48,281 bases of DNA from Candidatus Zixiibacteriota bacterium. GTDB lineage: Bacteria > Zixibacteria > MSB-5A5 > JAABVY01 > JAHJOQ01. The position numbers and the translations under genes are program-made. This document shows positions 2,461 to 19,741 of this stretch, in pieces. Where the stretch lies: NCBI GenBank assembly GCA_020053015.1, contig JAGVNY010000140.1:1-48281 (forward strand), given 5' to 3'. Positions within the stretch are counted from its first letter, which is position 1; each line of letters starts with the position of its first letter. The notes under the pieces were generated by a model. It had not been told where the DNA came from. It ran no database searches and saw only the letters and a program-made list of their open reading frames with translations.

Positions 2461-5097
2461 TTGCGTAAGTACGTTTCTGTATTTCTGCTATTGGTAACGG
2501 TTTCGTTATTTGCGAATCCGGACGCGGAATCAGCCCGTGAGGATGCGGATCGCATTTCCTCCGGAATCAAAATAGCTCGGATAGTAGTCAAGTTCCGAGA
2601 GTCAGCTGTGGTGCGACTCAGAGAAAACGGACTGGCGAGTCTGGGCAATGCCGACCTAAGCGCAGTCAACTCCGCGCTCAAAGGTATCCCTTTGAAGCCG
2701 TTGTTCATCCGATCCGAAGAGGATATCGATTTTGAACGTATGGCACTGAAGGCTTCTGCGCCGTCTGCCGTTGCAGACAAGAACTCCTACTTCCAGATTG
2801 ACCTGAAAGACCACACTCGTGCAGAGGAGGTTTTGAAGAAGCTTAGGAGTACCGCTATTGTCGAGACTGTCTATATCGAACCTGAGGCCGAGCTTGCTCA
2901 GGATGTGCCTCCTCCCACCCCGGATTTCTCTGGCGACCAGGGGTACCTGTACTCCCCGCCCGGGGGAATCGGCGCCGACTTTTCGTGGTCGATACCGGGA
3001 GGTACGGGCCAGAACGTCCACATCATAGATATCGAGGGCAACTGGACACTGACCCACGAGGATTTTGGCAGCAACTTCGGATCGATGTTGGCGGGGAATC
3101 CGGTGCCGTTGGATGACTGGATTAATCACGGCACGGCCACGACCGGCGAGATCGGGGGAGATTCGAACAGCTACGGGATAACCGGTATTGCCCACGACGC
3201 GCAGATCGACTTGATTTCTATCGATGGTATCGGAATTGCCGCCGCAGTGGATTATGCGGCCTCGGTCCTGAATCCGGGCGATATCATTATGATTGAGCTT
3301 CATACTCCGGGTCCTCGCTACAATTTCGAATCACGCCCCGATCAGCTCGGTTATGTCCCGATGGAGTATTTTCAGGCGACGTTCGACGCCATTCAGATAG
3401 CAACGGCAAAAGGGATCTTCGTAGTCGAGGCCGCAGGGAACGGCGCGGAAAACCTTGATGACGAGATATACGAGAACAGATTCGACAGAAGCTTCAGGGA
3501 TTCCAGAGCAATCTTGGTGGGTGCAGGTGTGCCACCGAATGGCATTTATGGCATAGACAGAACAAGGCTCTACTTCTCGAATTACGGATCGAGAGTTGAC
3601 CTTCAAGGATGGGGCAAGAGCGTAACCACGACCGGCTATGGCGGACTCTTCAGCGGGGATGGTGACGAAAACCAATACTACACGCAGACATTCGGAGGCA
3701 CTTCGGGCGCTACCCCGATAGTCGCAGGCGCGGTGGCATGTATTGAGGGAATTTTCGAGGCTGCGTATGGTGTTCCGCTGAGCGTGGATGCACTCGCTGC
3801 GCTTCTGACCTATACTGGATCAATGCAGCCGAATCCGAACGAATGGATCGGACCGAGACCCAATCTGCCCGAGGCGTATCAATTCCTGCCAGGTCCTGGG
3901 CTGAGCGCGCAGCCTGGGTTGATTCAAGCTTCAGGCTCCGACTACCCGATTCAGGTGTACGTAACTTTGATAAACGAAGATAGCCAATCGCCAAGGAATT
4001 TCGTGGTGACGATCGATGACACGCTTGAAGGCTTAGGTCAGGCGGGCTGGCTTGAGGTCTCGCCAACGTCGGGTACGATTGTGGCGGGAGGTTTGGCGGA
4101 TCTGACGGTTACGCTTGACCCGACTCTGCTCGATGACACTACCTACCACTACAAAGGAATGATCTCGGTCAGTTACGGCGCCTGGACATCGCTCAAGGTT
4201 CCGGTCTTCTTCACGGTTATTTGCCAGGAGACAGACTACGCAGTCGATGACAGTGATAATGAGTCCGGTCCCGACTTCCAGTGGATCGACATCACGGCGA
4301 TTGGGACGAAACTGCTCCCCTCCGACTTCCATAATGATCTTCATCCTACACTGGCGCTCGACGACGGGACTTCGAAGGCCATCCCAATAGGTTTCCCGTT
4401 CAATTTCTTCAATGATGTATTCGCGTACGTTTACGCAGGCGTGAATGGCGGCCTGTCTTTCGTGACTGACGAGGTGAATGTCAACGGTTACTTTGCGAAC
4501 ATTGATCTTCCGGCTCCCGGGATTGAAGCTCTGCTTCTCCCCTTCTGGAATGACCTCACGATCGATGCCGCCAGTGCAGGACACGGCGCTGTGTACTACT
4601 ATAATTCCCCCGGGCACGATTCACTGGTCATCGAATACTTCCAGATCGGGAATTTCGGCAGCCAAGAGGATAGCTTGATCACATTCGAGGTCGTGCTTAC
4701 GAGTAATCACAAGATCACTTATCAGTTTCTTGACGTAGGACTGCTTGATTTGGACTACGCAGCTCTCGTCGGGCTTAGTCGCGATCAGGGATGCAGAATG
4801 GTCGAGTACTATGAGCCGGGGTACCCGCTGGATAACACTCCCCACGATCAACTCCGGGTAGACTTCATGCCGGCGTATCAGATTGAGATGCGTTCCGGCG
4901 ATGCCAACAGCTCAGGGAACATTGATATTGACGACATTGTGTTTCTGATAACCTACGTCTTCGGTGGGGGACCGGCTCCGCAGCCGCCCGAGTCGGGTGA
5001 CTGCGATTGCCTGAGCGGTATCGACATTGACGATATTGTCTATCTCATAGTCTACGTATTTTCAGCGGGACCTGAACCCTGTTTGTACTACCCCTGA
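2461..5097 (+). CDS. Secreted S8 (subtilase) serine protease with Ig/BACON-like, NIDO-like and C-terminal dockerin-like domains
   Basis: Signal peptide and propeptide; triad IIDIEG / HGTATTG / GGTSGATP and oxyanion AAGNG; WLEVSPTSGTI Ig-like module; duplicated Ca-loop GDANSSGNIDIDDIVFLITYVFGGGPAP / GDCDCLSGIDIDDIVYLIVYVFSAGPEPC from about 4897. Confidence 0.9.
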   Translation: MRKYVSVFLLLVTVSLFANPDAESAREDADRISSGIKIARIVVKFRESAVVRLRENGLASLGNADLSAVNSALKGIPLKPLFIRSEEDIDFERMALKASAPSAVADKNSYFQIDLKDHTRAEEVLKKLRSTAIVETVYIEPEAELAQDVPPPTPDFSGDQGYLYSPPGGIGADFSWSIPGGTGQNVHIIDIEGNWTLTHEDFGSNFGSMLAGNPVPLDDWINHGTATTGEIGGDSNSYGITGIAHDAQIDLISIDGIGIAAAVDYAASVLNPGDIIMIELHTPGPRYNFESRPDQLGYVPMEYFQATFDAIQIATAKGIFVVEAAGNGAENLDDEIYENRFDRSFRDSRAILVGAGVPPNGIYGIDRTRLYFSNYGSRVDLQGWGKSVTTTGYGGLFSGDGDENQYYTQTFGGTSGATPIVAGAVACIEGIFEAAYGVPLSVDALAALLTYTGSMQPNPNEWIGPRPNLPEAYQFLPGPGLSAQPGLIQASGSDYPIQVYVTLINEDSQSPRNFVVTIDDTLEGLGQAGWLEVSPTSGTIVAGGLADLTVTLDPTLLDDTTYHYKGMISVSYGAWTSLKVPVFFTVICQETDYAVDDSDNESGPDFQWIDITAIGTKLLPSDFHNDLHPTLALDDGTSKAIPIGFPFNFFNDVFAYVYAGVNGGLSFVTDEVNVNGYFANIDLPAPGIEALLLPFWNDLTIDAASAGHGAVYYYNSPGHDSLVIEYFQIGNFGSQEDSLITFEVVLTSNHKITYQFLDVGLLDLDYAALVGLSRDQGCRMVEYYEPGYPLDNTPHDQLRVDFMPAYQIEMRSGDANSSGNIDIDDIVFLITYVFGGGPAPQPPESGDCDCLSGIDIDDIVYLIVYVFSAGPEPCLYYP

Positions 5098-5220
5098 TCT
5101 GATTCGGAATCGTAGCTCAAACGGTTCGATGCTTGACTTTGCCCTATCAGAAGCATCAAGCCCCAAGATGGCCTGACCAGCAATCTCCCGACAACGCATC
5201 TTGTCATTGCGGAGCGGTGT

Positions 5221-6684
5221 CTATCTTCCGGATGCCAACAGCGGGATATCAAACGGGAAGAATGAAGTCGGGAATACGCCGAGAACAATGGTTCCAAGCA
5301 CGGCTACCACAAGGGCGACATATAGAAAGGCGGGGTAAGAAACAGGACGAAACTCAGTCTGCGTATCGATCATGAACATCACTACTACGACGCGAAGGTA
5401 GTAGTAGACCGAGATGAGGCTGTTAATGACTGCGATCACAACCAGCGGAATCTGACCCTTCGCCACAGCCGCCTTGAACAGGAAAAACTTGCCTGCAAAT
5501 CCGGCTGTTGGTGGAATACCCGCCAGCGAGATCAGGAAGAGCGTCATCGCAGCTCCAAGGAACGGGTGTCGTCGTCCCAATCCGGTGAAGCTCGTAATCT
5601 CATTGTCACCATCCTCTTTGCCTTCCACGACGAGGAGAACCATGAAAGCGCCGAGATTCATCACCGTATACGTCAACAGGTAAAACACGACTGAGTTGAC
5701 CGCCTCGGCGGTGCCCGTCGCGAATGCGATCAGCATATAACCTGCATGAGCGATGGACGAGTAGGCCAGCATTCGTTTGATGTTGGTCTGAGAGATGGCG
5801 ATCAGATTGCCGGTGAACATAGTTAACACCGACAGGCTCCAAAACATCGGAGAGAGTTGGGTGATGTGTTGCCCGAATGCGACGACGAAGACTCTCGCGA
5901 GCACCGCGATAGCAGCTGCCTTTGGGCCGGATGACATGAACGCTGTGACTGCCGTCGGGGCGCCCTCATACACGTCAGGAACCCACATGTGAAACGGGAA
6001 CGAAGCCAGCTTGAATGCGAGGCCTATCAGAAGCAGCCCGCCTCCGACCATGAGGTAGAAGAAAGAGTTCGCGAGCGTGTATTGCTGAGGATCGAACATC
6101 TGCGCGATCGAAGTAGTACCCACTGCTCCGAAGACGAATGCGATTCCGAGAACGATGAAGCCGGTTGCAAAAGCCCCGAGAAGGAAGTATTTCAGCGAGG
6201 ATTCATTGGACTTCGGATCGGATCTTCTGAATCCTGCGAGCACGTAGAGTGCGACCGACATAATTTCGAGGCCGACGAAAAAGACGACAAGATCGGCTGC
6301 CGAGGCCATCATCATCATGCCGAACAACGAGAAAATGATCAGTGCGTAGTACTCTCCCGCCTCGAGTTTATGAAGCCGGATGTAATTCTCCGACATGAAA
6401 ACCACCAGCAATGAGCCGAGAAGAAAGATGAGTTTCAACACCGAGGAGAACAGGTCGATGCTGTACATCCCGGCAAAAGTTCGCGTGTCTGTTCCCCAGT
6501 TCATCCAGACGGCGAACGACGCAACGATTATCCCGAACCAGGCAATGTGACCGGTAATCCAGCGTCTGTCGCGTGGCAGGAACGCCGCGAACAACATGAT
6601 GAGCAGTGCAAGACCGCAGATGATGATCTCAGGCAAAATCGCAACGTAGTCAATCTGGGGGAATTCCAACTCTGCTTTCTCCAT
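5221..6684 (-). CDS. nuoN: NADH-quinone oxidoreductase subunit N
   Basis: Polytopic membrane protein with ESSLKYFLLG, FKLASFPFHMWVPDVYEGAP and KRMLAYSSIAHAGY; last gene of the nuo operon. The true start may be TTG at 6669, which has GGAG 9 nt upstream. Confidence 0.96.
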   Translation of the reverse strand: MEKAELEFPQIDYVAILPEIIICGLALLIMLFAAFLPRDRRWITGHIAWFGIIVASFAVWMNWGTDTRTFAGMYSIDLFSSVLKLIFLLGSLLVVFMSENYIRLHKLEAGEYYALIIFSLFGMMMMASAADLVVFFVGLEIMSVALYVLAGFRRSDPKSNESSLKYFLLGAFATGFIVLGIAFVFGAVGTTSIAQMFDPQQYTLANSFFYLMVGGGLLLIGLAFKLASFPFHMWVPDVYEGAPTAVTAFMSSGPKAAAIAVLARVFVVAFGQHITQLSPMFWSLSVLTMFTGNLIAISQTNIKRMLAYSSIAHAGYMLIAFATGTAEAVNSVVFYLLTYTVMNLGAFMVLLVVEGKEDGDNEITSFTGLGRRHPFLGAAMTLFLISLAGIPPTAGFAGKFFLFKAAVAKGQIPLVVIAVINSLISVYYYLRVVVVMFMIDTQTEFRPVSYPAFLYVALVVAVLGTIVLGVFPTSFFPFDIPLLASGR

Positions 6685-6690
6685 TTCAAA

Positions 6691-6707
6691 TCGGGCAGCC
6701 TGCCCGA
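6691..6707 (-). promoter_or_regulatory. Putative bacterial SECIS hairpin
   Basis: mRNA UCGGGCA-GGC-UGCCCGA, a perfect 7-bp stem whose G-led loop begins 18 nt after the in-frame UGA at 6719-6721. Confidence 0.7.
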
Positions 6708-6709
6708 AA

Positions 6710-6931
6710 TCAGAAGCCTCAGCCTCCGTTGAAGCCGAGCTTCACCTCTGTGCCGGAAACGATGATCGGCACTATGCGTTGTCCCTTCGAGTGCGACAGC
6801 GCTTCGCCGGCTATCTTCTTAGTCGATGTGACGTCAAACTCGTCGTATGCAATGCCGCGCTTGACCAGATCTTCTTTGGCTGCCGCGCAATAAGGGCATC
6901 CGGGTTTCGTGTAGATCTTCACATTTGCCAT
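6710..6931 (-). CDS. Glutaredoxin-like (seleno)protein, Uxx-star type, 73 aa with Sec at UGA 6719-6721
   Basis: ATG 6931 with AAGGTGAG RBS; MANVKIYTKPGCPYC...RIVPIIVSGTEVKLGFNGG-UGA-GGC-TTC-TGA, i.e. GG-U-G-F-stop; CPYC motif, cis-Pro VP motif and a downstream SECIS-like hairpin. Confidence 0.85.
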
Positions 6932-6932
6932 T

Positions 6933-8498
6933 TCACTCACCTTGATCCCGATATGTCCCCATTGGACCGTCGTTTCGGTCGACCTCTGCAATCGGGATTT
7001 CGGGCGTAGCGATCTGTGTATAAGCAACCCGTTTGAGAAGCGAGTCGATCGACCGTTCCATCGGTCTGAAGAATGTGCTTGGATAGATGCCGATCCAAAA
7101 GATCAACACCACGAGCGGCACAAGAATCAGCTTCTCGCGCAAATTGAGGTCGCGAATCGACCTGTTCTTCTCGTCAGTGATTTCGCCGAAGACGACTCGC
7201 TGGAGCATCCAGAGCATGTAGCAAGCGGCGAGTATCATCCCTGTGGCGGCAATGATCGCATAGGCAGCGTTTACTTTGAATGTGCCGAGCAAGATAAGAA
7301 ACTCGCCAACAAAACCGTTGGTGAAAGGCAGGCCGATCGACGAGAGCGCCACGATAACGAAGAAAGTCGTCCAGACGGGCATCGACGTGAAGAGCCCGCC
7401 CAAGTCCGCTATCATCCTCGTGTGTCGTCTCTCGTATAACATTCCCACGATGAGAAACAGCGCGCCGGTTGAGATGCCATGGTTGATCATCTGAATGATC
7501 GATCCCTGCATGCTCTGCATATTGAATGCCGCCATCCCGAGCATGACGAAACCGAGGTGAGACACCGAGGAGAATGCCACCAACGATTTCACGTCTTTCT
7601 GCACCATGGCGACAAGGGCGCCATAGATAATCCCTATTATGGCGAGCACCGAGATGACCGGGATGGATTCCATGAACGCATCTGGGAAGAGCGGAATGCA
7701 GAATCTCAGGAACCCGTATGTTCCCATCTTCAGCAGCACGCCCGCAAGAATCACGCTTCCGGCAGTTGGCGCTTGCACGTGGGCATCGGGCAGCCATGTG
7801 TGAAACGGAAACATAGGTACCTTGATGACAAACGCCAGCGCGAATGCGGCAAACAGCCACCTCTGGGCCTGAGAAGAAATCGCAAAGTCGTCCATCACGG
7901 TCAGATCGAACGAATAGACACCGGTTGCATAGTAATGCATTACGAATAGTGCGATTATCGCGACCAGCATCAACAGTGATCCCACAAGCGTAAATAGCAC
8001 GAACTTGATGGTTGCATAGATACGGTTGACTCCTCCCCAGATTCCGATCAGGAAGTACATCGGGACGAGCATCATCTCCCAAAAGACATAGAACAAAAAT
8101 AGGTCGAGTGACATGAAGACCCCGAGCATGCCTGTCTCAAGAAGGAGCAGCGAAATCAGATAACCCTTCAGTCGATCTTTGATGGCGTTCCATGATGACC
8201 AAATGGAAATCCATGACAGGAAAGTGGTCAGCAGGAACAACCACAGGCTGAGCCCGTCTATACCAACGTGGTAGTTCGCTCCCAGGCTGCTGATCCACGG
8301 CACGTTGACGGAAAACTGCATGGCGTCGGTCGAGGAATCGAAATTGATGCAGAGGTAGAGCGACAGCACGAAGGCCGCGAGACTTGTCGTGAAGGCGATT
8401 CCTTTCAGCACGGATTCGGCTTTGCGACTGATCGGCAGCATGATCAGAATGCCGATCAATGGCAAAGCAGTCACGATTGTAAGAACGTATTGATCCAT
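6933..8498 (-). CDS. nuoM: NADH-quinone oxidoreductase subunit M
   Basis: FYVFWEMMLVPMY, KVPMFPFHTWLPDAHVQAPT, AFSSVSHLG, NHGISTG motifs; operon position. Confidence 0.97.
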   Translation of the reverse strand: MDQYVLTIVTALPLIGILIMLPISRKAESVLKGIAFTTSLAAFVLSLYLCINFDSSTDAMQFSVNVPWISSLGANYHVGIDGLSLWLFLLTTFLSWISIWSSWNAIKDRLKGYLISLLLLETGMLGVFMSLDLFLFYVFWEMMLVPMYFLIGIWGGVNRIYATIKFVLFTLVGSLLMLVAIIALFVMHYYATGVYSFDLTVMDDFAISSQAQRWLFAAFALAFVIKVPMFPFHTWLPDAHVQAPTAGSVILAGVLLKMGTYGFLRFCIPLFPDAFMESIPVISVLAIIGIIYGALVAMVQKDVKSLVAFSSVSHLGFVMLGMAAFNMQSMQGSIIQMINHGISTGALFLIVGMLYERRHTRMIADLGGLFTSMPVWTTFFVIVALSSIGLPFTNGFVGEFLILLGTFKVNAAYAIIAATGMILAACYMLWMLQRVVFGEITDEKNRSIRDLNLREKLILVPLVVLIFWIGIYPSTFFRPMERSIDSLLKRVAYTQIATPEIPIAEVDRNDGPMGTYRDQGE

Positions 8499-8499
8499 G

Positions 8500-10431
8500 C
8501 TACCTCATCGACATGAAGAACGCGAGAACGACAATCGCACCGCCCAGAAACATCAGGGCGTAATTGCGCAAATACCCGGTTTGCATGACACGAGTGCTTC
8601 CGGAAAACGACTGCACCATATACGCAAGTCCATTTGCGATGCCGTCTATTATGGCGACGTCTATTACTTTCCACAGAAACATCGATATGACAATGAGCGG
8701 CCTGACAATGACCGCGGCATAGATCTCGTCAACGTAATACTTGTTGTACACGACTTTGTGGATGCCCGCAAACCGTTCTCTCAGACTTGTCGCAAGTTGA
8801 GGCCGCCGAATGTAAGCGACATAAGCGAAGTAGATCATCAGTAACACGAAGAGCACAGAGATTGTCATCAGCAGATATTCGGTCACGTGGGAGTGATGAT
8901 TCTCGCCGTGTGAAGCAAGTGCCGCGGAAGACGCGAACACCGGCTCCATGAAACGCTCGAAATGATTGCCGCCACCCATCGAGGCTGGAATGCCGATCCA
9001 TCCGCCGATTGCCGACAAGACCGCGAGTGATGCGAGCGCGAATAGCATGTTGCGAGGAGATTCGTGCAAATGCTCAGACTTGTGTTTGTCGTAACGTGGC
9101 TTCCCGAAGAATGTGAGAAACAACAGCCGGAACATGTAGAATGCCGTCAGACCGGCGGTCACGACACCGATCAGCCAGAAGACAACTCCGCCGTGTTCAG
9201 ACGAGAAAGCCTTCCAGAGTATCTCGTCCTTCGAGAAGAAGCCTGACAGACCGGGAATGCCTGCAATTGCAAGCGTGCCGACGAGCATCGTCAGGTAAGT
9301 AGTCTTGATCTTGGAGCGCAAACCGCCCATGTTGCGCATATCCTGCTCGTTGGACATCGCGTGTATCACCGATCCCGCCCCAAGAAAAAGCAGCGCCTTG
9401 AAGAACGCGTGCGTCATTAGGTGAAATATCCCGGCAGTGAATGCCGCGACACCGCATGCCAAAAACATGTATCCCAGTTGAGAGATCGTAGAATATGCAA
9501 GTACTCTCTTAATGTCATTCTGCGCGAGTCCCATGGTCGCAGCAAAGAGGGCTGTAGCTGCCCCTATTAACGCTACCACCAAGAGAGAAGTCGGCGCGAG
9601 CGTGTAGAGGACATTGCACCGCGCCACCATGTAGACACCTGCGGTTACCATGGTCGCGGCGTGAATCAAAGCTGATACCGGAGTGGGACCTTCCATGGCG
9701 TCGGGAAGCCACACGTACAGGGGTATCTGTGCGGACTTACCGGTCGCTCCGACGAAGAGCAGCAGAGTGATTGCGGTGATCACCGAACTGCCAATCTGGA
9801 AAGAACTCGCAGCGGACTCAAACACCTGACTGAAATTCAGGGAGCCGAACGTCCAGAATATCATGAAGATGCCAATTGCAAATCCGAAGTCGCCAATCCG
9901 GTTGACGATGAAAGCTTTCTTACCGGCATCGGATGCGGACTGCTTCTTGTACCAAAATCCGATCAACAGATAAGAGCAAAGCCCGACTGCCTCCCAACCT
10001 ACGTAGAGGAGCAGGAAGTTGTTCGCCAACACGAGAATCAGCATCGAGCCGGTGAAGAGATTGAGATATGTGAAGAACCGTGAGAATTCCTTGTCATGGG
10101 CCATGTAGCCGATCGAGTAGACGTGTATGAGGAACCCGACTCCGGAAACAACGAGCATCATCACAGCGGAGAGCGGGTCCAGCAGGAAAGCAATGTCGAC
10201 CTGAAATGCGCCTGACGGAATCCACGAGAATAGCAGAGTCTCGATAGAACGGTACTCAGGATCAAGCCCGAGGAGTTCAATTAGCGCTAAGACCGCGGCG
10301 ACGAGTGAAAAGAAGACCGAACCGCATGCGATCGAGCTGACTACGGGTTTCGGAAATCGTTTGCCGAAGAGCCCGTTGATCAGGAACCCGGCCAGAGGAG
10401 CCGCAGGTATTAGCCAGATATAGTTGGACAA
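8500..10431 (-). CDS. nuoL: NADH-quinone oxidoreductase subunit L
   Basis: GWEAVGLCSYLLIGFW, GKSAQIPLYVWLPDAMEGPTPVSALIHAATMVTAG, THAFFKALLFL. Confidence 0.97.
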   Translation of the reverse strand: MSNYIWLIPAAPLAGFLINGLFGKRFPKPVVSSIACGSVFFSLVAAVLALIELLGLDPEYRSIETLLFSWIPSGAFQVDIAFLLDPLSAVMMLVVSGVGFLIHVYSIGYMAHDKEFSRFFTYLNLFTGSMLILVLANNFLLLYVGWEAVGLCSYLLIGFWYKKQSASDAGKKAFIVNRIGDFGFAIGIFMIFWTFGSLNFSQVFESAASSFQIGSSVITAITLLLFVGATGKSAQIPLYVWLPDAMEGPTPVSALIHAATMVTAGVYMVARCNVLYTLAPTSLLVVALIGAATALFAATMGLAQNDIKRVLAYSTISQLGYMFLACGVAAFTAGIFHLMTHAFFKALLFLGAGSVIHAMSNEQDMRNMGGLRSKIKTTYLTMLVGTLAIAGIPGLSGFFSKDEILWKAFSSEHGGVVFWLIGVVTAGLTAFYMFRLLFLTFFGKPRYDKHKSEHLHESPRNMLFALASLAVLSAIGGWIGIPASMGGGNHFERFMEPVFASSAALASHGENHHSHVTEYLLMTISVLFVLLMIYFAYVAYIRRPQLATSLRERFAGIHKVVYNKYYVDEIYAAVIVRPLIVISMFLWKVIDVAIIDGIANGLAYMVQSFSGSTRVMQTGYLRNYALMFLGGAIVVLAFFMSMR

Positions 10432-10443
10432 GTCGTCTCTCCC

Positions 10444-10755
10444 CTACCACCGCATGATGTTGAAGTCGTCTGCATTGACACTCTCCCTGTTCCTGAACAC
10501 CGCGAGGATGATCGCCAGACCAACTGCTGCCTCGGCTGCCGCGACGGCAAACACGATGAAAACAAAGGCATGCCCAGAGACGTCACCGAGAGCTCTCGAG
10601 AACGCGATAAGAGCGAGATTCCCGGCATTGAGCATGATCTCGATTGACATGAAGATCACGATCAGATTCCTGGACGTCAGGACTCCCAGCACTCCGATCG
10701 CGAAGATCACAGCGGACAACGTCAGATAGTATTCCAGGGGTACCATTTCAATCAT
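10444..10755 (-). CDS. nuoK: NADH-quinone oxidoreductase subunit K
   Basis: SIEIMLNA and AVAAAEAAVGLAI motifs; start may be the second ATG at 10746. Confidence 0.95.
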   Translation of the reverse strand: MIEMVPLEYYLTLSAVIFAIGVLGVLTSRNLIVIFMSIEIMLNAGNLALIAFSRALGDVSGHAFVFIVFAVAAAEAAVGLAIILAVFRNRESVNADDFNIMRW

Positions 10756-11251
10756 CCAGTCTCTTCTTCGCGAGCACTACAGCGCCGAGTATAGCGGCCA
10801 TCAACAGGATTGATGTGGCCTCGAAAGGAAGCAAGTACTTCGTAAACAGGATTTCTCCGATCGATTCCACCGATCCGAAGTTCTCCGGAAGGCTAACAGA
10901 CGGAGAGCGAGATCCGTCTCTCAGCGCCACAATTACCAGCTCGAATGCGAGCAACGCTGCAAGCGCAACTGCTGCAAACTTCTGAAATGGGTGTCTATCT
11001 CCGCCGAATTCGTCTTTGCGCAGATTGAGCAGCATAATGATGAACAGGAAGAGAACCATTATCGCGCCAGCGTAGACGATTATCTGGAGTGCGGCGACGA
11101 AGACGGCAGACAACTGCACGAAGAGAATCGCCTGTGCCACGAAAGCCATGATGAGAAACAGCACTGCTCGCACTGGGTTCTTCTGGGTGATGACCATCAG
11201 GCAGCAGGCCACCGACGCGATTGCAGCGAGTATGAAGATGAACATTTCCAA
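10748..11251 (-). CDS. nuoJ: NADH-quinone oxidoreductase subunit J
   Basis: QIIVYAGAIMVLFLFIIMLL and YLLPFEATSILL motifs. Confidence 0.95.
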   Translation of the reverse strand: MEMFIFILAAIASVACCLMVITQKNPVRAVLFLIMAFVAQAILFVQLSAVFVAALQIIVYAGAIMVLFLFIIMLLNLRKDEFGGDRHPFQKFAAVALAALLAFELVIVALRDGSRSPSVSLPENFGSVESIGEILFTKYLLPFEATSILLMAAILGAVVLAKKRLDD

Positions 11252-11273
11252 GCGAGTGAACCTTCTCTTCGAG

Positions 11274-11756
11274 CTACTTCATGTAAGGTCTTCGTTTCTT
11301 GCGGATGAAATTCACCGGAGACGGCTTTGTGCGTGGCCATTTCACCAGCAAGTCTTCCTTAGTATAGATGAACTTCTCCCGCGCGTCATCAGAGAACTCG
11401 TATTCTTTTCCGAGAAAGATGGCCTCCTCCGGACATGCCTCTTCGCAGAATCCACAGAAGATGCACCGGAGCAAATTGATTTCATAAATCCTTGCTTTGC
11501 GCTCGCCCTTCTCTGTCTCTTCCGGCTCCATGTATATGGCATCCGCGGGACAGGCTGCCGCACAGAGTCCGCAACAGACGCATCTTTCGGAGCCATCTTC
11601 ATATCGCTCAAGAAAGTGCAATCCGCGATAGCGCGGAGCCATCGGGATCTTGACCTTTGGGTACTGCACGCTGACCGGTTTGCGGATCAGGTTCTTCAGC
11701 GTGGTGTAGAACCCTATGGGGATCGCAAGGATATGTCTCTTTATGAAGTCGTTCAT
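11274..11756 (-). CDS. nuoI: NADH-quinone oxidoreductase subunit I
   Basis: Two CxxCxxCxxxCP ferredoxin motifs (CVCCGLCAAACP, CIFCGFCEEACP); RYRGLH. Confidence 0.96.
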   Translation of the reverse strand: MNDFIKRHILAIPIGFYTTLKNLIRKPVSVQYPKVKIPMAPRYRGLHFLERYEDGSERCVCCGLCAAACPADAIYMEPEETEKGERKARIYEINLLRCIFCGFCEEACPEEAIFLGKEYEFSDDAREKFIYTKEDLLVKWPRTKPSPVNFIRKKRRPYMK

Positions 11757-11765
11757 GTCTTCAGT

Positions 11766-12749
11766 CTACAGCACAAAGAACGCCGTTACCATCACGTTGA
11801 TCACCGCAATCGGGAGCAGTACCTTCCATCCAAAGCTCATGAGCTGGTCGTACCGTAACCGGGGCAGAGTGCCTCTCGCCCAGATGTAGAAGACCTGGAA
11901 CGCTGCCACTTTGATCAGGAACCACACGATAGGCGGAAGAAACGGACCATGCCAACCTCCGAAGAACAGCGTGGTTGCGATCGCCCCGACTGTGATCATG
12001 TTGGCATACTCCGCCACGAAAAACATTCCGAATTTCATCGACGAGTACTCTGTGTGGTACCCTGCGACGAGCTCACTCTCAGCTTCGGGTAGATCGAACG
12101 GCGACCGGTTCGTCTCAGCGACGGCACAGATGAAATAGACGACGAACGCAACTGGGTTCCTGAACACGTACCAACCTACGAACGAGCCCTGCTTGTCAAC
12201 TATGTCTACGAGATTCAGAGATCCGGATAGGAGAATAACGACAACTATCGCGAGACCCATTCCGATCTCATAGGATATCATCTGGGCCGATGATCGCAAT
12301 CCGCCCAGAAGCGAATACTTGGAATTCGATGAATAACCTGCCATGATAATCGAATAGACCCCGATTGACGTTATCGCAAGTACGTACAGGATGCCGACGT
12401 TCAGATTGGAGATCACCAAATCGTACGTCCTGCCGAACAGCGTTATGCTGTCGCCGAATGGGACCACCGCAATTGAAAGGGTGGCCGGAATAAACGATGC
12501 AAGCGGAGCGATGCCGTAAATGAACTTGTCGACGTGCTTCGGAGTAATATCTTCTTTGAAAAGCAGCTTTATCATGTCGGCAACGGGTTGCAGCAACCCT
12601 TGATACCCAGCGTTCATCGGTCCGAGCCGAGACTGGATGCGCGCGACAAGCTTTCGCTCCAGCCAAGTCATGTATGCGCATCCCGTCAGCAGCACCGCGA
12701 ATACTGCGATTACCTGGATAAGCTTCACGATTAGGAACGTCCAGTCCAT
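11766..12749 (-). CDS. nuoH: NADH-quinone oxidoreductase subunit H
   Basis: WLERK...RLGP, AQMISYE, ETNRSPFDLPEAESELVAGY, RYDQLM. Confidence 0.97.
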   Translation of the reverse strand: MDWTFLIVKLIQVIAVFAVLLTGCAYMTWLERKLVARIQSRLGPMNAGYQGLLQPVADMIKLLFKEDITPKHVDKFIYGIAPLASFIPATLSIAVVPFGDSITLFGRTYDLVISNLNVGILYVLAITSIGVYSIIMAGYSSNSKYSLLGGLRSSAQMISYEIGMGLAIVVVILLSGSLNLVDIVDKQGSFVGWYVFRNPVAFVVYFICAVAETNRSPFDLPEAESELVAGYHTEYSSMKFGMFFVAEYANMITVGAIATTLFFGGWHGPFLPPIVWFLIKVAAFQVFYIWARGTLPRLRYDQLMSFGWKVLLPIAVINVMVTAFFVL

Positions 12750-12750
12750 G

Positions 12751-15363
12751 CTACACCTTAACGAGACTCACCATATCTATGTCGAAGTTGCGATTCCTGA
12801 GCGCATTGGCCTGCATCTCAGGGAAATTGTCCGGAATCCAGACGCAATCGTCCGTGAGTCGCTCAATGTATCTGACTTTTCCGATCAGTTTGCCCGACTT
12901 GTTTTCGACCTTTACAAGATCGCCTTCGGACAGCGCGTGCTTCGTCGCGGTCTTTGCGCTGAGACCCACATACGGTCCGTCCATGAATCTATTCAGACTC
13001 TCTGCCCGAGTAGTCCGCCCTGAGCCGATATGATGATCTCCGTTTCCTGTCAGAAGCACGTACTTATGCGCGGCGTCCAGTTCGGGCGGTTTGAATCGGA
13101 CTTGCTGAAGCCCAGCTGCGCGGTCAAGCGTCTTCCGAGCCGGTACTCGAAGTCCATCCTCCGGGAAGCCGGCAAACGAAACTCGGCTCTCCGGAAAGAA
13201 CCGGGAGTACTCGTCGAACACCTGCTCGGCGCAGCTATAGGCGAATTTGTCGCCTGCGGCAGCTGCGAGATCGTTGAAAATGAGCCATGCGGGTTTCGAC
13301 GAGCCAATCGGCTTGATCGCTTGCTGAAAAGTCTGCACGCGTCCTTCCCAATTGCAGAAGGAACCGGAAGTCTCCATGTGACTCGCCATCGGGAGCACGA
13401 CGTCTGCAAGCTTGGCGGTATCAGTAAGATACAAATCCGTCACAACGAGGAATTCGAGTTTTGACAACGTCGCATGAATGTAGTTGCGATCTGGATATGA
13501 CCGGATGGGATCGGCTGCCACCACAAATGTCATTTCGATCCTGCTCTCGTCTATTTCCCGCAGAATATCAATCGTATCGAATCCTGTTCGGTCAGGTACT
13601 CCACCCTGCCATACAGGTGTGAGAGCATCCTTCTCCGTGATCGACCTGCCAAACGGAAGGCGGTCCGGTCTCATGCCCAGGAGATAACTTCCACGGTTGT
13701 TTCCGCCAATCCTCTGCACCACGATGCATTTTGGTTCATTCTTCAAGTGGCCCGTGACGAGCGCGAGATTGTAGAGCGCAGTGAGGATCATGTCGCGCTG
13801 ATAGTGAAGAGCTACATAAGCGCCTGTTATGAAGACAGCTCTCTTCGCGCCGGCGATCTGCCTGGCAAGGGCTCGAAGCTCGGATTCAGAGATACAACAC
13901 TCGGCAGCAACGTCCTTGACGTCGAGATTGTCAGTCTCATTGAGGAATCTCTCAACGCCTGGATCATCCAGACCCGTCGTTCCGGGATCGAACAACTTCT
14001 CCTGCAGAACGATTCTCGCGACTGCCGTAAGAAGAGATATTTCCGTGTTTGGCTTGTGGACATACTCGTCCCCCGATCTCGCTAACCTTGTGGGAGCAGG
14101 GCCAATAGTAATCAGCTTCGCATTGTTGTATCGTTTCGCCTTCAGCAGTCTGAGAGCAGAGATCGGATTCTCAGTGTGGAGATCGGAACCGAAGATCACC
14201 GCAAGATCGCATTTCTCGAGATCATCGAATGACATGTCAGATCCGATCACTCCCAACTGCGTAAGCTGCGGAGAATGCGTCAGCTTGAGTTTGCGATGCA
14301 GGCGATGATCGATGGAGTTCGAACCGACGACCGAGCGCATGAACTTGCCGATCACGTAGAAATCTTCGTTAGTGCCGTCCTCGCCCACGAGAGCGGCGAC
14401 ACTCTGAGGACCGAGCTTCTCCTTGACCGATTTCAACTTTGCAGCAATAGCGCTGTAGGCATCCTGCCAAGTGCATTCGACAAGCTCTCCTCCCCGCCTG
14501 ATTAGCGGAGTCTTGAGCCTGTCGGCATGATGAACGAACTGATATCCGTAACGTCCGACATCGCAGATGAATCCTTCGTCGACCCGGTCGTTACGTCGCG
14601 AAGTAGCCCGGAATATCCTCTCCCGAGCCGTCCACAGCGTAAGGTTGCAACCATCGGGACAGAAGCCGCACACGCTCTTCTTTTGTTTTGTGAGCCAAAC
14701 ACGGACTTTGTAGCGCCAGTCCCGGTTTGTGAGGGCGCCGACAGGGCAATACTCCACGACGTTGCCGGAATACAGATTTCTGATTTCTCTGCCGGGAGGT
14801 GGGAGTATCTCGGTGCCGTGACCTCGCTCAAAGGCGCCGAGATCGTCTTCTTCGCATATCTCATCGACAATTCGGGTGCATCTGTAACAGTGAATACACC
14901 TGTTCTGATTGCGGATGATCTCGGGACCTATGGGCAGGTCGTCGAATGTAGAGTTCTCGTCGACAATAAATCTCTGCCGAGGCTCTCTCGTCCTGGCAAA
15001 GTCGAGACCGTAGTGATACGTGATGTTCTGCAGCGGGCATTCACCGCCTTTGTCGCATGTCGGGCAGTCGAGTGGATGATTCAGAAGAATGAACTCTATG
15101 ACTGCCTGTCTTGCCTTCACGACGCGCTGATTGCTCGCATACACAATCATTCCGTCTGCTGCAAGCGTCGCGCAGGATACCTGCAATTTGGGCCACTTCT
15201 CAACCTCGACAAGACACACTCGGCATGCGCCGATTGATTTCAGCTTCGAGTGCCAGCAGAAAGTCGGAATCTCGATGCCATTGTCGAGTGCAGCTTCGAG
15301 GATGGTCTTGCCGGCAGTCGTGGTAATCTCTCGGCCGTCTATGGTGAGTTTAATCTGGCTCAT
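12751..15363 (-). CDS. nuoG: NADH-quinone oxidoreductase subunit G (long form with N7 cluster and molybdopterin-oxidoreductase-like C-terminus)
   Basis: IPTFC, GACRVC, NHPLDCPTCDKGGECPLQ, RCIHCYRC, CPVGAL, and CGFCPDGC...ICDVGRYG. Confidence 0.95.
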   Translation of the reverse strand: MSQIKLTIDGREITTTAGKTILEAALDNGIEIPTFCWHSKLKSIGACRVCLVEVEKWPKLQVSCATLAADGMIVYASNQRVVKARQAVIEFILLNHPLDCPTCDKGGECPLQNITYHYGLDFARTREPRQRFIVDENSTFDDLPIGPEIIRNQNRCIHCYRCTRIVDEICEEDDLGAFERGHGTEILPPPGREIRNLYSGNVVEYCPVGALTNRDWRYKVRVWLTKQKKSVCGFCPDGCNLTLWTARERIFRATSRRNDRVDEGFICDVGRYGYQFVHHADRLKTPLIRRGGELVECTWQDAYSAIAAKLKSVKEKLGPQSVAALVGEDGTNEDFYVIGKFMRSVVGSNSIDHRLHRKLKLTHSPQLTQLGVIGSDMSFDDLEKCDLAVIFGSDLHTENPISALRLLKAKRYNNAKLITIGPAPTRLARSGDEYVHKPNTEISLLTAVARIVLQEKLFDPGTTGLDDPGVERFLNETDNLDVKDVAAECCISESELRALARQIAGAKRAVFITGAYVALHYQRDMILTALYNLALVTGHLKNEPKCIVVQRIGGNNRGSYLLGMRPDRLPFGRSITEKDALTPVWQGGVPDRTGFDTIDILREIDESRIEMTFVVAADPIRSYPDRNYIHATLSKLEFLVVTDLYLTDTAKLADVVLPMASHMETSGSFCNWEGRVQTFQQAIKPIGSSKPAWLIFNDLAAAAGDKFAYSCAEQVFDEYSRFFPESRVSFAGFPEDGLRVPARKTLDRAAGLQQVRFKPPELDAAHKYVLLTGNGDHHIGSGRTTRAESLNRFMDGPYVGLSAKTATKHALSEGDLVKVENKSGKLIGKVRYIERLTDDCVWIPDNFPEMQANALRNRNFDIDMVSLVKV

Positions 15364-16649
15364 TAGGTGAAGCTTGGCATCCTATTGATTGTCATGCACT
15401 TCTTGTGCTTAATGTGATACTCGAATTCATCGCGAAAGGTCTTGGTGAAAGCCCGCACAGGCATCGCAGCGGCATCGCCGAGCGGACATATCGTGTGCCC
15501 TTCGATCTTGTCGCACACATCAAGCAGCAACTCAATGTCATTCTCGCAGCCCTTGCCGCTTTCGATCCTGTCCAGGATTTGAAACATCCATTGCGTTCCC
15601 ATTCTGCAAGGCGTGCACTTGCCGCAGGACTCGTGCATATAGAAATGGGCGAGTTTGCGCGCAGCCCACACCATGCAAGTGTCCTCGTGCATAACGACCA
15701 CGCCCCCAGATCCGAGCATCGACCCTGCTTGGGCGACGGACTCGAAGTCGAGATGAACGTCCAGCTTGTCCGGAGTCAATACCGGAGTCGATGAGCCTCC
15801 GGGGATAATAGCCTTGATCTTCTTGTCCCCCAGCACTCCACCTCCGAGATCGTTGATCAGGTAGCTGAGAGGGGTTCCGAGCTCCAACTCATAGTTGCCG
15901 GGCCGCTTGACGTGACCCGAAAGACAGAAGATCCGAGTGCCGGTCGATTTCTCCGTGCCCATCTTCGCATACCACTCGGGGCCGTTAGTGATTATCCCGG
16001 GCACATTCGCCAGGGTCTCCACATTGTTTACGACCGTGGGGCTGGCATACAAACCCTCGACCGCAGGGAACGGCGGTCTGATACGCGACAGCCCTCGTTT
16101 TCCCTCGAGCGACTCAAGAAGCGCAGTCTCTTCTCCGCAGATATATGCTCCCCCGCCCGTGTGCACTGCCATCTCGAGATCATAACCTGCGCCGAAGAGG
16201 TTCTTTCCGAGAAAGTCCTTGTCATATGCTTCCTGTACGGCTTTTCTCATTTGTGCCGCGGGATATGCGAATTCGCCGCGTATGTAAATGTATGCGTTGT
16301 GTGCGCCGATAGCGAACGCCGCTATGGCCATGCCCTCCACAACTCTGTGCGGGTCTCTCTCGAGCAGCACTCGGTCCTTGCAGGTACCCGGCTCCGATTC
16401 GTCGCCGTTGCAGACAAGATATTTGGGCTTCGGCGAGTCCTTGGGAACAAAGCTCCACTTCACACCCGCAGGGAATCCAGCCCCTCCCCGTCCGCGCAAA
16501 CCTGATCGTTTGACGATGTCGATCACATCGGCGGGCTTTAGCTCTCGCAGTACCTTCTCCCAAGCCTTGTATCCGCCCGTGGAGATATATGTAGCAATCT
16601 TATGCTGATCGGGATTGTCGATGTATTTGAAAAGGACTCTGAGTTCCAC
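15363..16649 (-). CDS. nuoF: NADH-quinone oxidoreductase subunit F
   Basis: SGLRGRGGAGFP, NGDESEPGTCKDR, GAYICGEETAL, HESCGKCTPCR. Confidence 0.97.
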   Translation of the reverse strand: MELRVLFKYIDNPDQHKIATYISTGGYKAWEKVLRELKPADVIDIVKRSGLRGRGGAGFPAGVKWSFVPKDSPKPKYLVCNGDESEPGTCKDRVLLERDPHRVVEGMAIAAFAIGAHNAYIYIRGEFAYPAAQMRKAVQEAYDKDFLGKNLFGAGYDLEMAVHTGGGAYICGEETALLESLEGKRGLSRIRPPFPAVEGLYASPTVVNNVETLANVPGIITNGPEWYAKMGTEKSTGTRIFCLSGHVKRPGNYELELGTPLSYLINDLGGGVLGDKKIKAIIPGGSSTPVLTPDKLDVHLDFESVAQAGSMLGSGGVVVMHEDTCMVWAARKLAHFYMHESCGKCTPCRMGTQWMFQILDRIESGKGCENDIELLLDVCDKIEGHTICPLGDAAAMPVRAFTKTFRDEFEYHIKHKKCMTINRMPSFT

Positions 16650-16653
16650 TCTT

Positions 16654-17130
16654 CTATCCCTTTTTCCTCAGCTCGTCGATTATTGCGTCGACTTTCTCTC
16701 GCGTCAAATTCTCGTAGAACAGGTCATTGATCTGCATCATCGGCGCTGTCGTGCACGATCCGAGGCACTCAACCGTAACGACCGTAAACAAACCATCCGG
16801 AGTTATTGCGCCCTTCTTCACGTCGAGCTTGCGTAGCAGATATTCCACCAGCGACTCGGCTCCGAGCAACGAACAAGACAGATTGTGACAGACTTGAATG
16901 AAGTACTTCCCGACAGGCTGCTTCGGAAACATCGTATAGAATGACGCTGCTTCTGCGATCTGGATTGTATCGAGATCGAGTACGTCGGCAATCTCGCGAT
17001 AGACCACCTCGTTCAGGTGGCCAACCTGTCTGTATGCGTGTGTCAAAGCCGGCAGGATGCACGACCGTCTCTGCGGGTATTTGGGAATGTCAGCACGTAT
17101 TGCCTTAACGGTCTGCTCGTTGAGTATCAT
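16654..17130 (-). CDS. nuoE: NADH-quinone oxidoreductase subunit E
   Basis: SFYTMF, VCHNLSC and ECLGSCTTAP 2Fe-2S ligands. Confidence 0.96.
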   Translation of the reverse strand: MILNEQTVKAIRADIPKYPQRRSCILPALTHAYRQVGHLNEVVYREIADVLDLDTIQIAEAASFYTMFPKQPVGKYFIQVCHNLSCSLLGAESLVEYLLRKLDVKKGAITPDGLFTVVTVECLGSCTTAPMMQINDLFYENLTREKVDAIIDELRKKG

Positions 17131-18299
17131 CTGTCGACTTCTCCGAGCACAATATCGATTGAGCCAATTGCCGCGATCACGTCGGCGACCAGTCCACCTT
17201 TGCAGAGCTTATCGAGTGCCGCCGTGTGGACGAAGCTCGGCGGTCTCACGCGCATCCGATAGGGATACGGGCCGCCGTCGGACACGATGTAGAATCCGAG
17301 TTCGCCCTTGGGCGACTCGATTCCTTGATAAACCTCGCCAACCGGTGGATGAATGCCCTCGGTTATTATCTTGAAATGGAATATGAGCGCTTCCATCTCC
17401 TTGAGCGCCCTCTCCTTCGGGGGAAGGATTACTCCCGGAGCGTTAGCGCGGTAATCACCGTCGGGCATTCCGTCAAGCGCCTGCCGGACTATTCGCAGAC
17501 TCTGCCTCATCTCCTGCACTTTGACCAGATACCGAGCGTAAACATCGCAACCGTCGTTGGTTGGAATGTCGAAATCAAACTTTTCGTACGACGAATACGG
17601 ATTTGCCTTCCGCAAATCGTGCTTGATTCCACAGGCTCGAAGAAGCGGCCCTGTGAATCCGCAGCTCAGAGCGTCCTCAGGCGATATCTTTGCCACGCCA
17701 ATAGTCCGGCTTCGCCAAATCGGGTTGTTGGTTAGAAGATCTTCATACTCGTCAAACTTAGATGGGAACTCCTCAAGGATCTCGCGCACCCGCTGATCAA
17801 AATCGGCAGGAAGGTCTTCTGCCAGTCCGCCGAGCCTAAAATATGTCGACATCATGCGCTGCCCGGAGACGAGTTCATATACTGCCAGAATCTTCTCCCT
17901 CTCTCTGAAAGCGTACAGCAGCATGCTCATAGCGCCAATGTCAAGGGCATGTGTTCCGATCCAGACGAGGTGCGAGTTAAGCCTTGTGAGTTCCGTCAGG
18001 CAGACTCTTGCCCACTGTGCCTTGGGGGGGATTTCGACACCGAGCAACTTCTCGACGGCAAGACAAAACCCGAGATTGTTCGACATCGGAGCCAGATAGT
18101 CCATTCGGTCCGTTGTCGGAATGACTTTGTAGTAATGCTTCGATTCCGCGGTCTTCTCGATGCCGGTGTGCAGATAACCGATAATAGGATATGCTCGCAC
18201 GACTGTCTCGCCGTCGAGCTCAAGCTGAACTCGGAGCACGCCGTGGGTGGCAGGATGCTGAGGACCCATGTTCAAGGTCATCGTTCTGGCTTCTATCAC
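17127..18299 (-). CDS. nuoD: NADH-quinone oxidoreductase subunit D
   Basis: NMGPQHPATHGVLR, GYLHTGIEK, ESPKGE, DIVLGEVDR. Confidence 0.97.
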   Translation of the reverse strand: MIEARTMTLNMGPQHPATHGVLRVQLELDGETVVRAYPIIGYLHTGIEKTAESKHYYKVIPTTDRMDYLAPMSNNLGFCLAVEKLLGVEIPPKAQWARVCLTELTRLNSHLVWIGTHALDIGAMSMLLYAFREREKILAVYELVSGQRMMSTYFRLGGLAEDLPADFDQRVREILEEFPSKFDEYEDLLTNNPIWRSRTIGVAKISPEDALSCGFTGPLLRACGIKHDLRKANPYSSYEKFDFDIPTNDGCDVYARYLVKVQEMRQSLRIVRQALDGMPDGDYRANAPGVILPPKERALKEMEALIFHFKIITEGIHPPVGEVYQGIESPKGELGFYIVSDGGPYPYRMRVRPPSFVHTAALDKLCKGGLVADVIAAIGSIDIVLGEVDR

Positions 18300-18808
18300 T
18301 TGATGACCTCGGGTGGCTCTTCGATATTGTGAGAAAACTGCGGGACTTCATATGTAAGCGGAAAATCCTTACGCAGCGGATATCCGTCGAATCCCTCGGG
18401 TGTCAGAATCCTCGTCATGTCCGGATGACCCTGAAATTCGATTCCAAACATGTCATACACTTCTCGCTCAAGCCAGTTGGCGATATCCCACAGGCCTGTC
18501 AGAGTGGGGACCTTCTCCCTTTCTTTCGCTCTGATCTTTATTCGGACGTACGTGTGCGAGTCGAGTGAATAGAGCAAGTACACTATCTCGTGCCGCTCAC
18601 TGCGACCTGGCCAGTCAGTTGCCGTCAAATCGGTAAGCATCCCAAAGCGCAGGTCAGGAGATGTCTTCAGGTGGCTTAGAATCTCTATCAACGTGTTCTT
18701 CTTGACAATGATAGTCAGTTCGCCGCGAAAGTACGACGATTCTATGAGAGCGTCAGGAAAATTCTCTCTAAGCTGCGATTCGACTTTCTGAAGAACCACG
18801 TTGATCAT
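18296..18808 (-). CDS. nuoC: NADH-quinone oxidoreductase subunit C
   Basis: ANWLEREVYDMFGIEFQGHPD and GYPLRKDFPL. Confidence 0.96.
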   Translation of the reverse strand: MINVVLQKVESQLRENFPDALIESSYFRGELTIIVKKNTLIEILSHLKTSPDLRFGMLTDLTATDWPGRSERHEIVYLLYSLDSHTYVRIKIRAKEREKVPTLTGLWDIANWLEREVYDMFGIEFQGHPDMTRILTPEGFDGYPLRKDFPLTYEVPQFSHNIEEPPEVIK

Positions 18809-18870
18809 CTTGCTACACTTTTCACAATCAGCGGCGGTGGTCCCTAACGCTGAGGTGATTTCTCACCAGA

Positions 18871-19703: not shown

Positions 19704-19741
19704 CAACTTCTCCGAATCAGCCCCCGCCGAGATTAGCGGGG

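Follow-up and report, generated by a model that had tools for sequence, protein, structure and literature searches.

The window analyzed here, the whole 48,281-nucleotide (nt) contig JAGVNY010000140.1 of a Candidatus Zixiibacteriota bacterium (assembly GCA_020053015.1), carries on its minus strand a complex I (NADH dehydrogenase) operon in which a small gene for a glutaredoxin-like protein is lodged between nuoM and nuoN. Comparison of this gene with its relatives across the phylum indicates that an in-frame UGA near its end very probably encodes selenocysteine (Sec; U in protein sequences), and that its placement in the operon is, by the same genomic comparison, conserved and non-random. The selenoprotein thus joins a known family, the Uxx-star glutaredoxin-like selenoproteins, as a new member, and its phylum-wide fixation in the complex I operon is a new context for that family.

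A probable selenocysteine codon near the end of a glutaredoxin-like gene

The gene (6710-6931, minus strand) opens with an ATG at 6931, and its frame reads MANVKIYTKPGCPYCAAAKEDLVKRGIAYDEFDVTSTKKIAGEALSHSKGQRIVPIIVSGTEVKLGFNGG, followed by TGA, GGC, TTC and TGA. The first of these TGA triplets (6719-6721) is the first in-frame stop and the candidate Sec codon at residue 71; the second (6712-6710) is the terminal stop. Translated with TGA as U, the 73 codons give MANVKIYTKPGCPYC...LGFNGG-U-G-F-stop, in which a CPYC motif occupies residues 12-15. Past the terminal stop, within the 25-nt spacer ahead of the nuoN ATG, lies a hairpin, UCGGGCA-GGC-UGCCCGA (6691-6707, minus strand), which resembles the selenocysteine insertion sequence (SECIS) element of bacterial selenoprotein genes; it has a perfect 7-bp stem, and 18 nt separate the UGA from the first G of its loop. 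A preliminary description, made from this DNA alone, had pointed to a 73-codon CPYC gene starting 1 nt past the nuoM stop, with a UGA-Gly-Phe-UGA ending and a hairpin loop 18 nt past the first UGA; the coordinates agree with the first statement, and both of the latter features were confirmed at the locus.

The strength of the case for Sec lies in the comparison between genomes and not in the folding of a single sequence. In a set of 55 distinct loci, comprising 27 from the same class and 28 further matches from the phylum that were returned as loci, the first in-frame stop is TGA in every homologous gene (55/55). The codon that follows specifies Gly in 47 of the 55, with all four Gly codons in use, and Asp in the other 8; the next one specifies Phe in 52 (TTC in 28, TTT in 24), Ile in two and Tyr in one; and the third is a stop in all 55 (TAA in 36, TGA in 11, TAG in 8). 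An ordinary terminator would not be TGA every time, and an untranslated sequence would not hold two residues through synonymous change. On these grounds the UGA at 6721-6719 very probably encodes Sec.

The genome is equipped for such decoding. It has matches over the respective cut-offs for selA (493.7 bits), selB (295 bits), selD (403.3 bits) and tRNA-Sec (74.2 bits; anticodon tca according to ARAGORN), of which selA, selB and tRNA-Sec are clustered on one contig (G000:C86, about 27-34 kb) and selD lies on another, in an assembly of 263 contigs that is 88% complete. Across the class, selA is present in 39 of 41 genomes, the two misses being assemblies that are 79% and 52% complete. The selD match (G000:C108:27721-28644) sits in an open frame of 776 residues, far longer than SelD alone; this is probably an NADH-dehydrogenase-SelD fusion like that described in the examined text of PMC2398784.

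A search for the Sec machinery had been proposed in the preliminary description as a check, and its outcome is positive for all four components. The homologues likewise retain the U-x-x-stop ending along with a SECIS-like hairpin (TGA in 55/55, stop at the third codon past it in 55/55). A further expectation, that some homologues would have Cys in place of Sec, was not borne out: every phylum locus has the TGA, and among the 49 loci without nuo flanks in a genome-wide scan (see below), 42 carry the TGA and the remaining seven are ordinary glutaredoxins without the tail. The same description had named a genome devoid of Sec machinery, homologues that simply end at GG, or an insertion missing from the nuo operons of relatives as grounds for abandoning its reading. 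None of the three applies, since the machinery is present, the U-x-x-stop ending is kept and the placement is conserved in relatives.

The SECIS-like hairpin

The geometry rule used by bSECISearch calls for a hairpin at a set distance past the UGA with a G in the apical loop. We scored a hairpin as present if it had a stem of at least 5 pairs, at least 3 of them G-C, a loop of 3-6 bases with a G at its first or second position, and a distance of 12-23 nt from the UGA to the start of the loop. Hairpins of this description follow 51 of 54 distinct real sites, as opposed to 247 of 6016 (4.1%) other TGA triplets in the same loci; the three sites missed (L042, L164, L174) have weaker or A-U-rich stems. 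A hairpin is found at the same distance in all 55 loci examined, the loop starting 15-23 nt past the UGA in the relatives. GGUC is the commonest loop (23/51), and the SECIS element of E. coli fdhF also has a GGUC loop.

Covariation was examined on a hairpin-anchored set of 24 four-base-loop hairpins, which replaced a MAFFT alignment of the raw downstream stretches that was not structural; two of the 26 four-base-loop hairpins (L033, L187) were left out, the loops detected in them being in another register. Changes on both sides of the stem occur in all 7 of its pairs and amount to 41 cells against a shuffled mean of 13, with none of 500 shuffles reaching 41. Paired cells make up 93.5% of the stem alignment, versus 29-77% when the partner column is slid, figures to be read with the fact that the register was picked by the hairpin search, so that the alignment leans towards structure.

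Approaches that consider the single sequence are less telling. The folding energy of the 56-nt stretch from the window is unremarkable (z = -0.80; 38 of 200 shuffles fold as well), Rfam, searched over 6400-7100 with E values up to 10, yielded just three chance-level matches and no SECIS family, and a terminator/promoter pattern scan of 5000-9000 did not flag the hairpin. The scan did flag a second stem on the minus strand at 6718-6739, with 9 pairs and a loop of 4, which spans the Sec UGA and ends 2-3 bases into the next codon; this stem could compete with the SECIS fold.

Public annotation stops at the UGA, giving the homologues as 70-residue proteins called 'glutaredoxin family protein' or 'glutaredoxin 3'. 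These records and the lack of an Rfam match for the hairpin are what could be cited for a reading in which the UGA is a real stop, the product is a 70-residue glutaredoxin ending in GG, and all that lies downstream is coincidence. Such a reading would have to account for a TGA that always comes first in genes whose true terminators mix TAA, TGA and TAG, for two conserved residues that show synonymous codon variation and are followed by a stop at the third codon in 55 of 55 genes, for a hairpin that covaries, for a family profile that covers the tail (see below) and for the presence of the Sec machinery; we regard its probability as next to nil.

The position of the hairpin raises another alternative. 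The spacer from the selenoprotein gene to nuoN has a median length of 39 nt, and the median distance from the end of the hairpin to the nuoN start is 19 nt (53 loci; the nuoN start calls in these measurements are heuristic). In four loci of one family (code f2; L043, L047, L048, L049) the called nuoN AUG, likewise a heuristic call, coincides with the three bases that close the 3' arm of the hairpin, and if that call is right the nuoN start codon would be buried in the SECIS stem. Bound to a SECIS-like element, SelB represses translation of the E. coli sel operon. The hairpin might by analogy serve both as SECIS and as a coupling or SelB-binding element before nuoN, so that NuoN synthesis follows the supply of selenium or Sec-tRNA and the peptide is secondary; the tight spacing and the f2 arrangement would suit this. 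We consider it highly improbable as the principal explanation, for the UGA and the true stop lie just 9 nt apart, and the insertion of Sec would thus hardly alter the point at which ribosomes end. Moreover, the spacer measures 178 nt in one locus and 263 nt in another, and the protein is under clear purifying selection (the CPYC, VP, G69 and U71 are invariant), for which a pure RNA device would have no need.

A member of the Uxx-star glutaredoxin-like family

The protein matches the NCBIfam model NF041212 (Uxx-star glutaredoxin-like selenoprotein) with 106.8 bits against a cut-off of 66, over profile positions 1-70 of 70, and in a six-frame search of the genome the same model scores 99.6 bits at this gene. 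By this match it is a genuine Sec-containing member of the family, as had been proposed in the preliminary description. It resembles the family in its length of about 70 residues, its N-terminal CxxC and its Sec three residues from the C-terminus. It differs in falling below the cut-offs of the three named Uxx-star sub-family models (68 vs 72, 72.2 vs 100 and 71.9 vs 97 bits; the models related to NF041212 are NF041114, NF041211, NF047338 and NF045501) and in being fixed inside a complex I operon. The more general glutaredoxin domain PF00462 is matched with 49.9 bits. The scores fall short of the cut-offs of the class I glutaredoxin model (TIGR02181, 48.9 bits vs 90) and of the NrdH-redoxin/YruB-type models (TIGR02196, 59.6 bits vs 88.55; TIGR02194, 36 bits vs 85.75).

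An AlphaFold2 model, computed from an alignment of 27 sequences with U given as C, has a pLDDT of 86.2 and predicts a beta-alpha-beta-alpha-beta-beta core from which the C-terminal helix is absent. Its best fold matches in the PDB (template modelling (TM) scores 0.72-0.82) are short glutaredoxins, Bacillus cereus BC3987, NrdH-redoxins (1h75, 4hs1) and the glutaredoxins of Clostridium oremlandii. All 27 sequences share C12, P13, C15, V54, P55, G69 and U71. A profile search of PDB sequences set G69-G70-U71 against the GGC of 4tr0_A; this alignment spans a gap of 4 residues, and its posterior probability is low.

Class I dithiol glutaredoxins bind glutathione through the CPYC together with a Thr-Val-Pro, a GG-x-DD motif and the C-terminal helix. 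These glutathione-binding elements are not found in the 27 sequences: the residue before V54-P55 is variable, with Thr in 1 of 27, and the chain ends directly past GG-U-G-F.

A conserved position in the complex I operon

In the window, one co-directional 14-gene complex I operon extends from 19751 to 5221 on the minus strand and runs from nuoA to nuoM, then through the selenoprotein gene to nuoN (Pfam). It comprises nuoA-B-C-D-E-F-G-H-I-J-K-L (8500-19751; a Pfam match for each open reading frame), nuoM (6933-8498; TIGR01972, 617.6 bits; stop TGA at 6935-6933) and, as its last gene, nuoN (5221-6684; TIGR01770, 450.5 bits; ATG at 6684). A single base (6932) separates the nuoM stop from the ATG of the selenoprotein gene, and a Shine-Dalgarno-like AAGGUGAG (6936-6943), read from the sequence, lies 4 nt ahead of that ATG and overlaps the end of nuoM; GGAG/GAGG-type sites occur at the same position ahead of the gene in homologues. 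For nuoN there is an alternative in-frame start, TTG at 6669, with a GGAG at 6682-6679 ahead of it. NuoE, NuoF and NuoG, which had been put forward earlier as possible clients of the redoxin, are all encoded in the same operon according to Pfam. The nuo gene order is identical in 28 related operons. Directly upstream of nuoA is an open reading frame of 483 residues (19871-21322, minus strand) with no Pfam match at E 1e-5.

The arrangement recurs throughout the relatives. Of the first 27 loci, 26 have nuoM upstream and 26 have nuoN downstream, and contig ends account for the two exceptions (L029, L034); among the further 28, nuoM is upstream in all and nuoN downstream in 27 (L174 is cut). All 55 loci are therefore nuoM-X-nuoN wherever the contig permits, and the survey of synteny that had been suggested for the relatives returns a conserved order. 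More broadly, all 56 phylum loci that exceed the NF041212 cut-off and were inspected have the gene at this single site.

The family is found over the cut-off in 27 of 41 genomes of the same class and, across the phylum, in 137 of the 201 genomes sampled. The positives are spread over 11 family codes (f1 4/4, f2 2/3, f3 1/1, f4 4/4, f5 16/17, f7 7/8, f8 69/73, f12 2/4, f13 11/12, f16 3/3, f17 17/21), across which the gene at the nuo site is kept at 41-73% protein identity. None of the 50 sampled genomes of eight other family codes has it (f6 0/1, f9 0/9, f10 0/12, f11 0/3, f14 0/2, f15 0/10, f18 0/10, f19 0/3). Given that selA is present in nearly the entire class (39/41), the Sec trait does not decide the presence of the gene.

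It is a single copy in 135 of the 137 positive genomes. One of the two others (G178) has a second copy over the cut-off, which is likewise just upstream of a nuoN, the bases on its other side being unavailable, and in the other (G156) the second match, an ordinary CxxC glutaredoxin, does not reach the cut-off. A contig titled Calditrichota also carries the gene; it is 73.7% identical over 2.4 kb to the phylum loci, as near to them as they are to one another, and we accordingly see no clear case outside Zixibacteria.

Kept at this exact site, with a median of about 39 nt to nuoN, the selenoprotein is very probably co-produced with complex I. A pattern scan found no promoter-like site in the spacer on either side of the gene.

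Proposed mechanism

We infer the following relay chemistry, reductant and link to complex I. SelB, together with Sec-tRNA(Sec), would read the UGA at 6721-6719 under the guidance of the hairpin just past the true stop, and the recoding would append U-G-F to a redoxin body of 70 residues. The product would combine the CPYC dithiol with a selenol on a Gly-rich C-terminal tail, which is predicted from the topology of the fold to emerge beside the active site. In glutaredoxins the segment past the last strand lines the active site, and the selenol should for this reason be able to reach Cys12. It would be the first group to react, its partner being a peroxide, a mixed disulfide or an oxidised thiol, after which Cys12 and Cys15 would resolve the selenenyl intermediate, and thioredoxin reductase, not glutathione, would recycle the resulting disulfide.

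The choice of reductant follows from both the protein and the genome: the glutathione-binding elements are missing, a thioredoxin reductase is present (377 bits), and no glutathione synthesis genes were found in the 88% complete genome, with no glutathione synthetase over the cut-off (best 45.9 bits vs 299) and no GshA match. The protein is thus likely to behave as an NrdH-like, thioredoxin-reductase-dependent redoxin to which a selenol has been added.

On the evolutionary side, the gene would have been inserted once in an ancestor of the phylum and have stayed at this site in most lineages, being transcribed and translated together with complex I. Its likeliest job would be to hold in check either complex I itself or the reactive oxygen species (ROS) that it releases, gene order being the only pointer to complex I or its ROS as the client. 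We place somewhat better than even confidence in this reading, that of a complex I-directed redoxin encoded as a cistron of the complex I operon.

Does the protein serve complex I?

Several observations weigh against a role dedicated to complex I, and they concern the operons of the phylum, the subunits of the complex and the settings of the family elsewhere. NuoN was searched in all 14 relatives without the gene. Nine of these have an orthologous operon (NuoN identity 46-53%); in eight of them nuoN follows nuoM directly and leaves the gene no space, and in the ninth (G008) the contig begins inside nuoN. The paralogous nuo operons of the 14 relatives (NuoN identity 33-41%) are also without it. 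In a FastTree phylogeny of concatenated NuoM and NuoN (82 rows; rooted on the paralogues, with weak support of 56), operons with the gene occur in all three main orthologous clades and the eight without it are nested at four places, so that at least 4 presence/absence changes are needed, or 5 if the paralogues are counted as absent. The simplest reading of this pattern would be one old insertion followed by about four clean losses. With the operon intact after at least four such losses, the gene is dispensable to it.

This dispensability bears directly on the idea that the protein is a structural accessory subunit, which would bind complex I stably as a built-in redox sensor or stabiliser. A small thioredoxin-type fold encoded with tight spacing between two structural genes is what might be expected of such a subunit. 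A subunit should be present wherever the orthologous complex occurs, and eight orthologous operons are without the gene; beyond the repeated loss, neither the paralogous operons of the 14 relatives nor the complex I of any other phylum seen includes it. We therefore judge a subunit role distinctly unlikely.

A client among the subunits might be betrayed by a cysteine that comes and goes with the gene. We compared the Cys columns of 14 subunits between 23 operons with the gene and 6 without, using larger sets for NuoM and NuoN, and no column in any of the 14 subunits tracks the gene cleanly. Three columns were considered and rejected as evidence, since each follows one clade split. Cys90 of NuoF (16380-16382, minus strand) is found in 17 of 23 operons with the gene and in none of the 6 without; it is part of the flavin-site motif E-S-E-P-G-T-[C/F]-K-D-R, where the other 6 of the 23 and all 6 of those without the gene have Phe, and all of the inferred gene losses fall in the NuoF-Phe clade. 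A Cys at this position is also seen in the solved structure of a bacterial NuoF, PDB 8qby_F, and a Phe in the NuoF of Aquifex. Cys80 of NuoF (20/23 vs 2/6) follows the clade and not the gene. Cys267 of NuoM (7698-7700, minus strand) is present in 52 of 52 sequences from operons that carry the gene and in 4 of 7 orthologues from operons that lack it, and none of 18 paralogues has it; in the set of 23 and 6 operons it is over the 60% conservation threshold in both groups.

For the family at large, the best 80 of 580 confirmed stretches from a genome-wide scan comprise 31 loci with nuoM and/or nuoN as a flank, 42 with a C-terminal in-frame TGA and no nuo flank, and 7 ordinary glutaredoxins. The 42 come from Anaerolineae, Dehalococcoidia, Thermoleophilia, Actinomycetes, Acidobacteriota, Eremiobacterota and other groups, and the 74 neighbouring open reading frames from 30 of them show no complex I domain in Pfam. 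In three loci from Anaerolineae/Chloroflexota (L061, L062, L087) the Uxx-star gene is directly downstream of selB. In four from Thermoleophilia/Actinomycetes (L059, L064, L069, L070) it lies between tpiA on the opposite strand and a co-directional AhpC/TSA redoxin gene, the product of which is a possible redox partner of the Uxx-star protein.

Also in this set, eleven loci from Acidobacteriota, Eremiobacterota and others (L082, L095, L113, L117, L104, L107, L114, L116, L120, L121, L128) have an ending of the form U-T-[VI]-H, with variants U-A-I-H, U-V-I-H or U-S-V-H in three of them and three or four residues between Sec and the stop; by their sequences these are length variants of the Uxx-star ending.

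Finally, nuo operons are compact, and a gene once inserted may be hard to move. This leads to the most serious rival of a complex I-directed redoxin, in which the gene for a true Uxx-star selenoprotein, one that does general redox work in the cytoplasm (e.g. as the reductant of a peroxiredoxin-like protein) and has no specific role at complex I, landed once between nuoM and nuoN, and was then held by a compact, strongly expressed operon that offers no easy exit. The unrelated settings of the family elsewhere (selB; tpiA with the AhpC/TSA redoxin gene), the four or more clean losses from intact operons and the lack of a subunit cysteine tracking the gene all speak for it. It sits less comfortably with the occurrence of all 56 inspected phylum loci at this one site, with the persistence of that site over 11 family codes in spite of the divergence of the protein, and with the gene being the only copy in 135 of 137 positive genomes, the last of which means that expression is tied to complex I whatever the selenoprotein does. 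We hold this rival to be plausible but the less likely of the two, and retain a redoxin directed at complex I as our preferred reading.

Relationship to known systems

In the text examined, a 2026 review (PMC13188914) lists the Uxx-star family, crediting Haft and Tolstoy 2025, and suggests that its Sec may bind a metal ion or work on substrates yet to be identified; that text gives no complex I context. The examined text of PMC13326102, on BSepDB, and of PMC2398784, the 2008 Global Ocean Sampling (GOS) study, likewise has nothing on such a context. A full-text literature search, with Haft and Tolstoy 2025 (mSystems) outside its reach, found no report of a glutaredoxin or selenoprotein gene between nuoM and nuoN. 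Within that same compass, the statement in the preliminary description that no such arrangement had been described fits the literature.

In terms of chemistry, the closest working analogy is found in animals. Mammalian thioredoxin reductase and thioredoxin-glutathione reductase have a C-terminal Gly-Cys-Sec-Gly tail. The likeness is that of a selenol on a flexible, Gly-rich tail, which exchanges with a dithiol centre and passes electrons to a substrate. In thioredoxin reductase, as here, the SECIS element lies outside the coding sequence because the Sec is so near the C-terminus. The present protein differs in lacking the flavoprotein body and the neighbouring Cys of the tail, its dithiol being the CPYC within the same 73 residues; the comparison is one of mechanism and implies no homology of the tail.

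Among bacterial selenoproteins, cGrx1 of Clostridium oremlandii (PDB 7c10) and the UxxC selenoproteins share the short glutaredoxin fold (Foldseek TM 0.77-0.78). In those proteins, however, Sec replaces the first active-site Cys, whereas here both Cys are kept and the C-terminal Sec supplies an additional, third centre. The UxxC type has an example within this very phylum: a different glutaredoxin-like selenoprotein with an active-site Sec (U-V-D-C) is encoded at L051:1501-1692 (G033:C60), in a genome without the nuo-embedded gene.

With respect to complex I, mitochondrial glutaredoxin 2 acts on its thiols and NDUFA2 is a thioredoxin-fold accessory subunit of it. Both are cases of a glutaredoxin- or thioredoxin-fold protein on complex I and offer a functional precedent for the role proposed here. 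They differ in being encoded apart from the core subunits and in having no selenium, and glutaredoxin 2 is glutathione-dependent; the protein described here is linked to the complex through the position of its gene. Extra genes in bacterial complex I clusters also have a precedent in the nqo cluster of Paracoccus denitrificans, in which unidentified reading frames are interspersed among the complex I genes. There too small genes lie between core complex I genes, but at other positions, for other proteins, with no selenoprotein among them and in another phylum.

Implications

A bolder version of the link to complex I would make the protein a dedicated, selenium-dependent redox guardian or a supernumerary subunit of the complex, with the SECIS element doubling as a coupling element for nuoN. 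We think this unlikely; if true, a respiratory NADH dehydrogenase would for the first time have a selenoprotein among its components, and the completion of the membrane arm would be tuned to selenium and redox status.

At the level of the genes themselves, public annotation of this group cuts off the Sec, and the loci make up a clean, naturally occurring collection of SECIS elements located entirely beyond the coding sequence. For the Uxx-star family, which has been without an assigned function, the fixed placement in the complex I operon offers the first testable cellular link, and it raises the question of whether a selenol-bearing redoxin protects, repairs or regulates NADH dehydrogenase.

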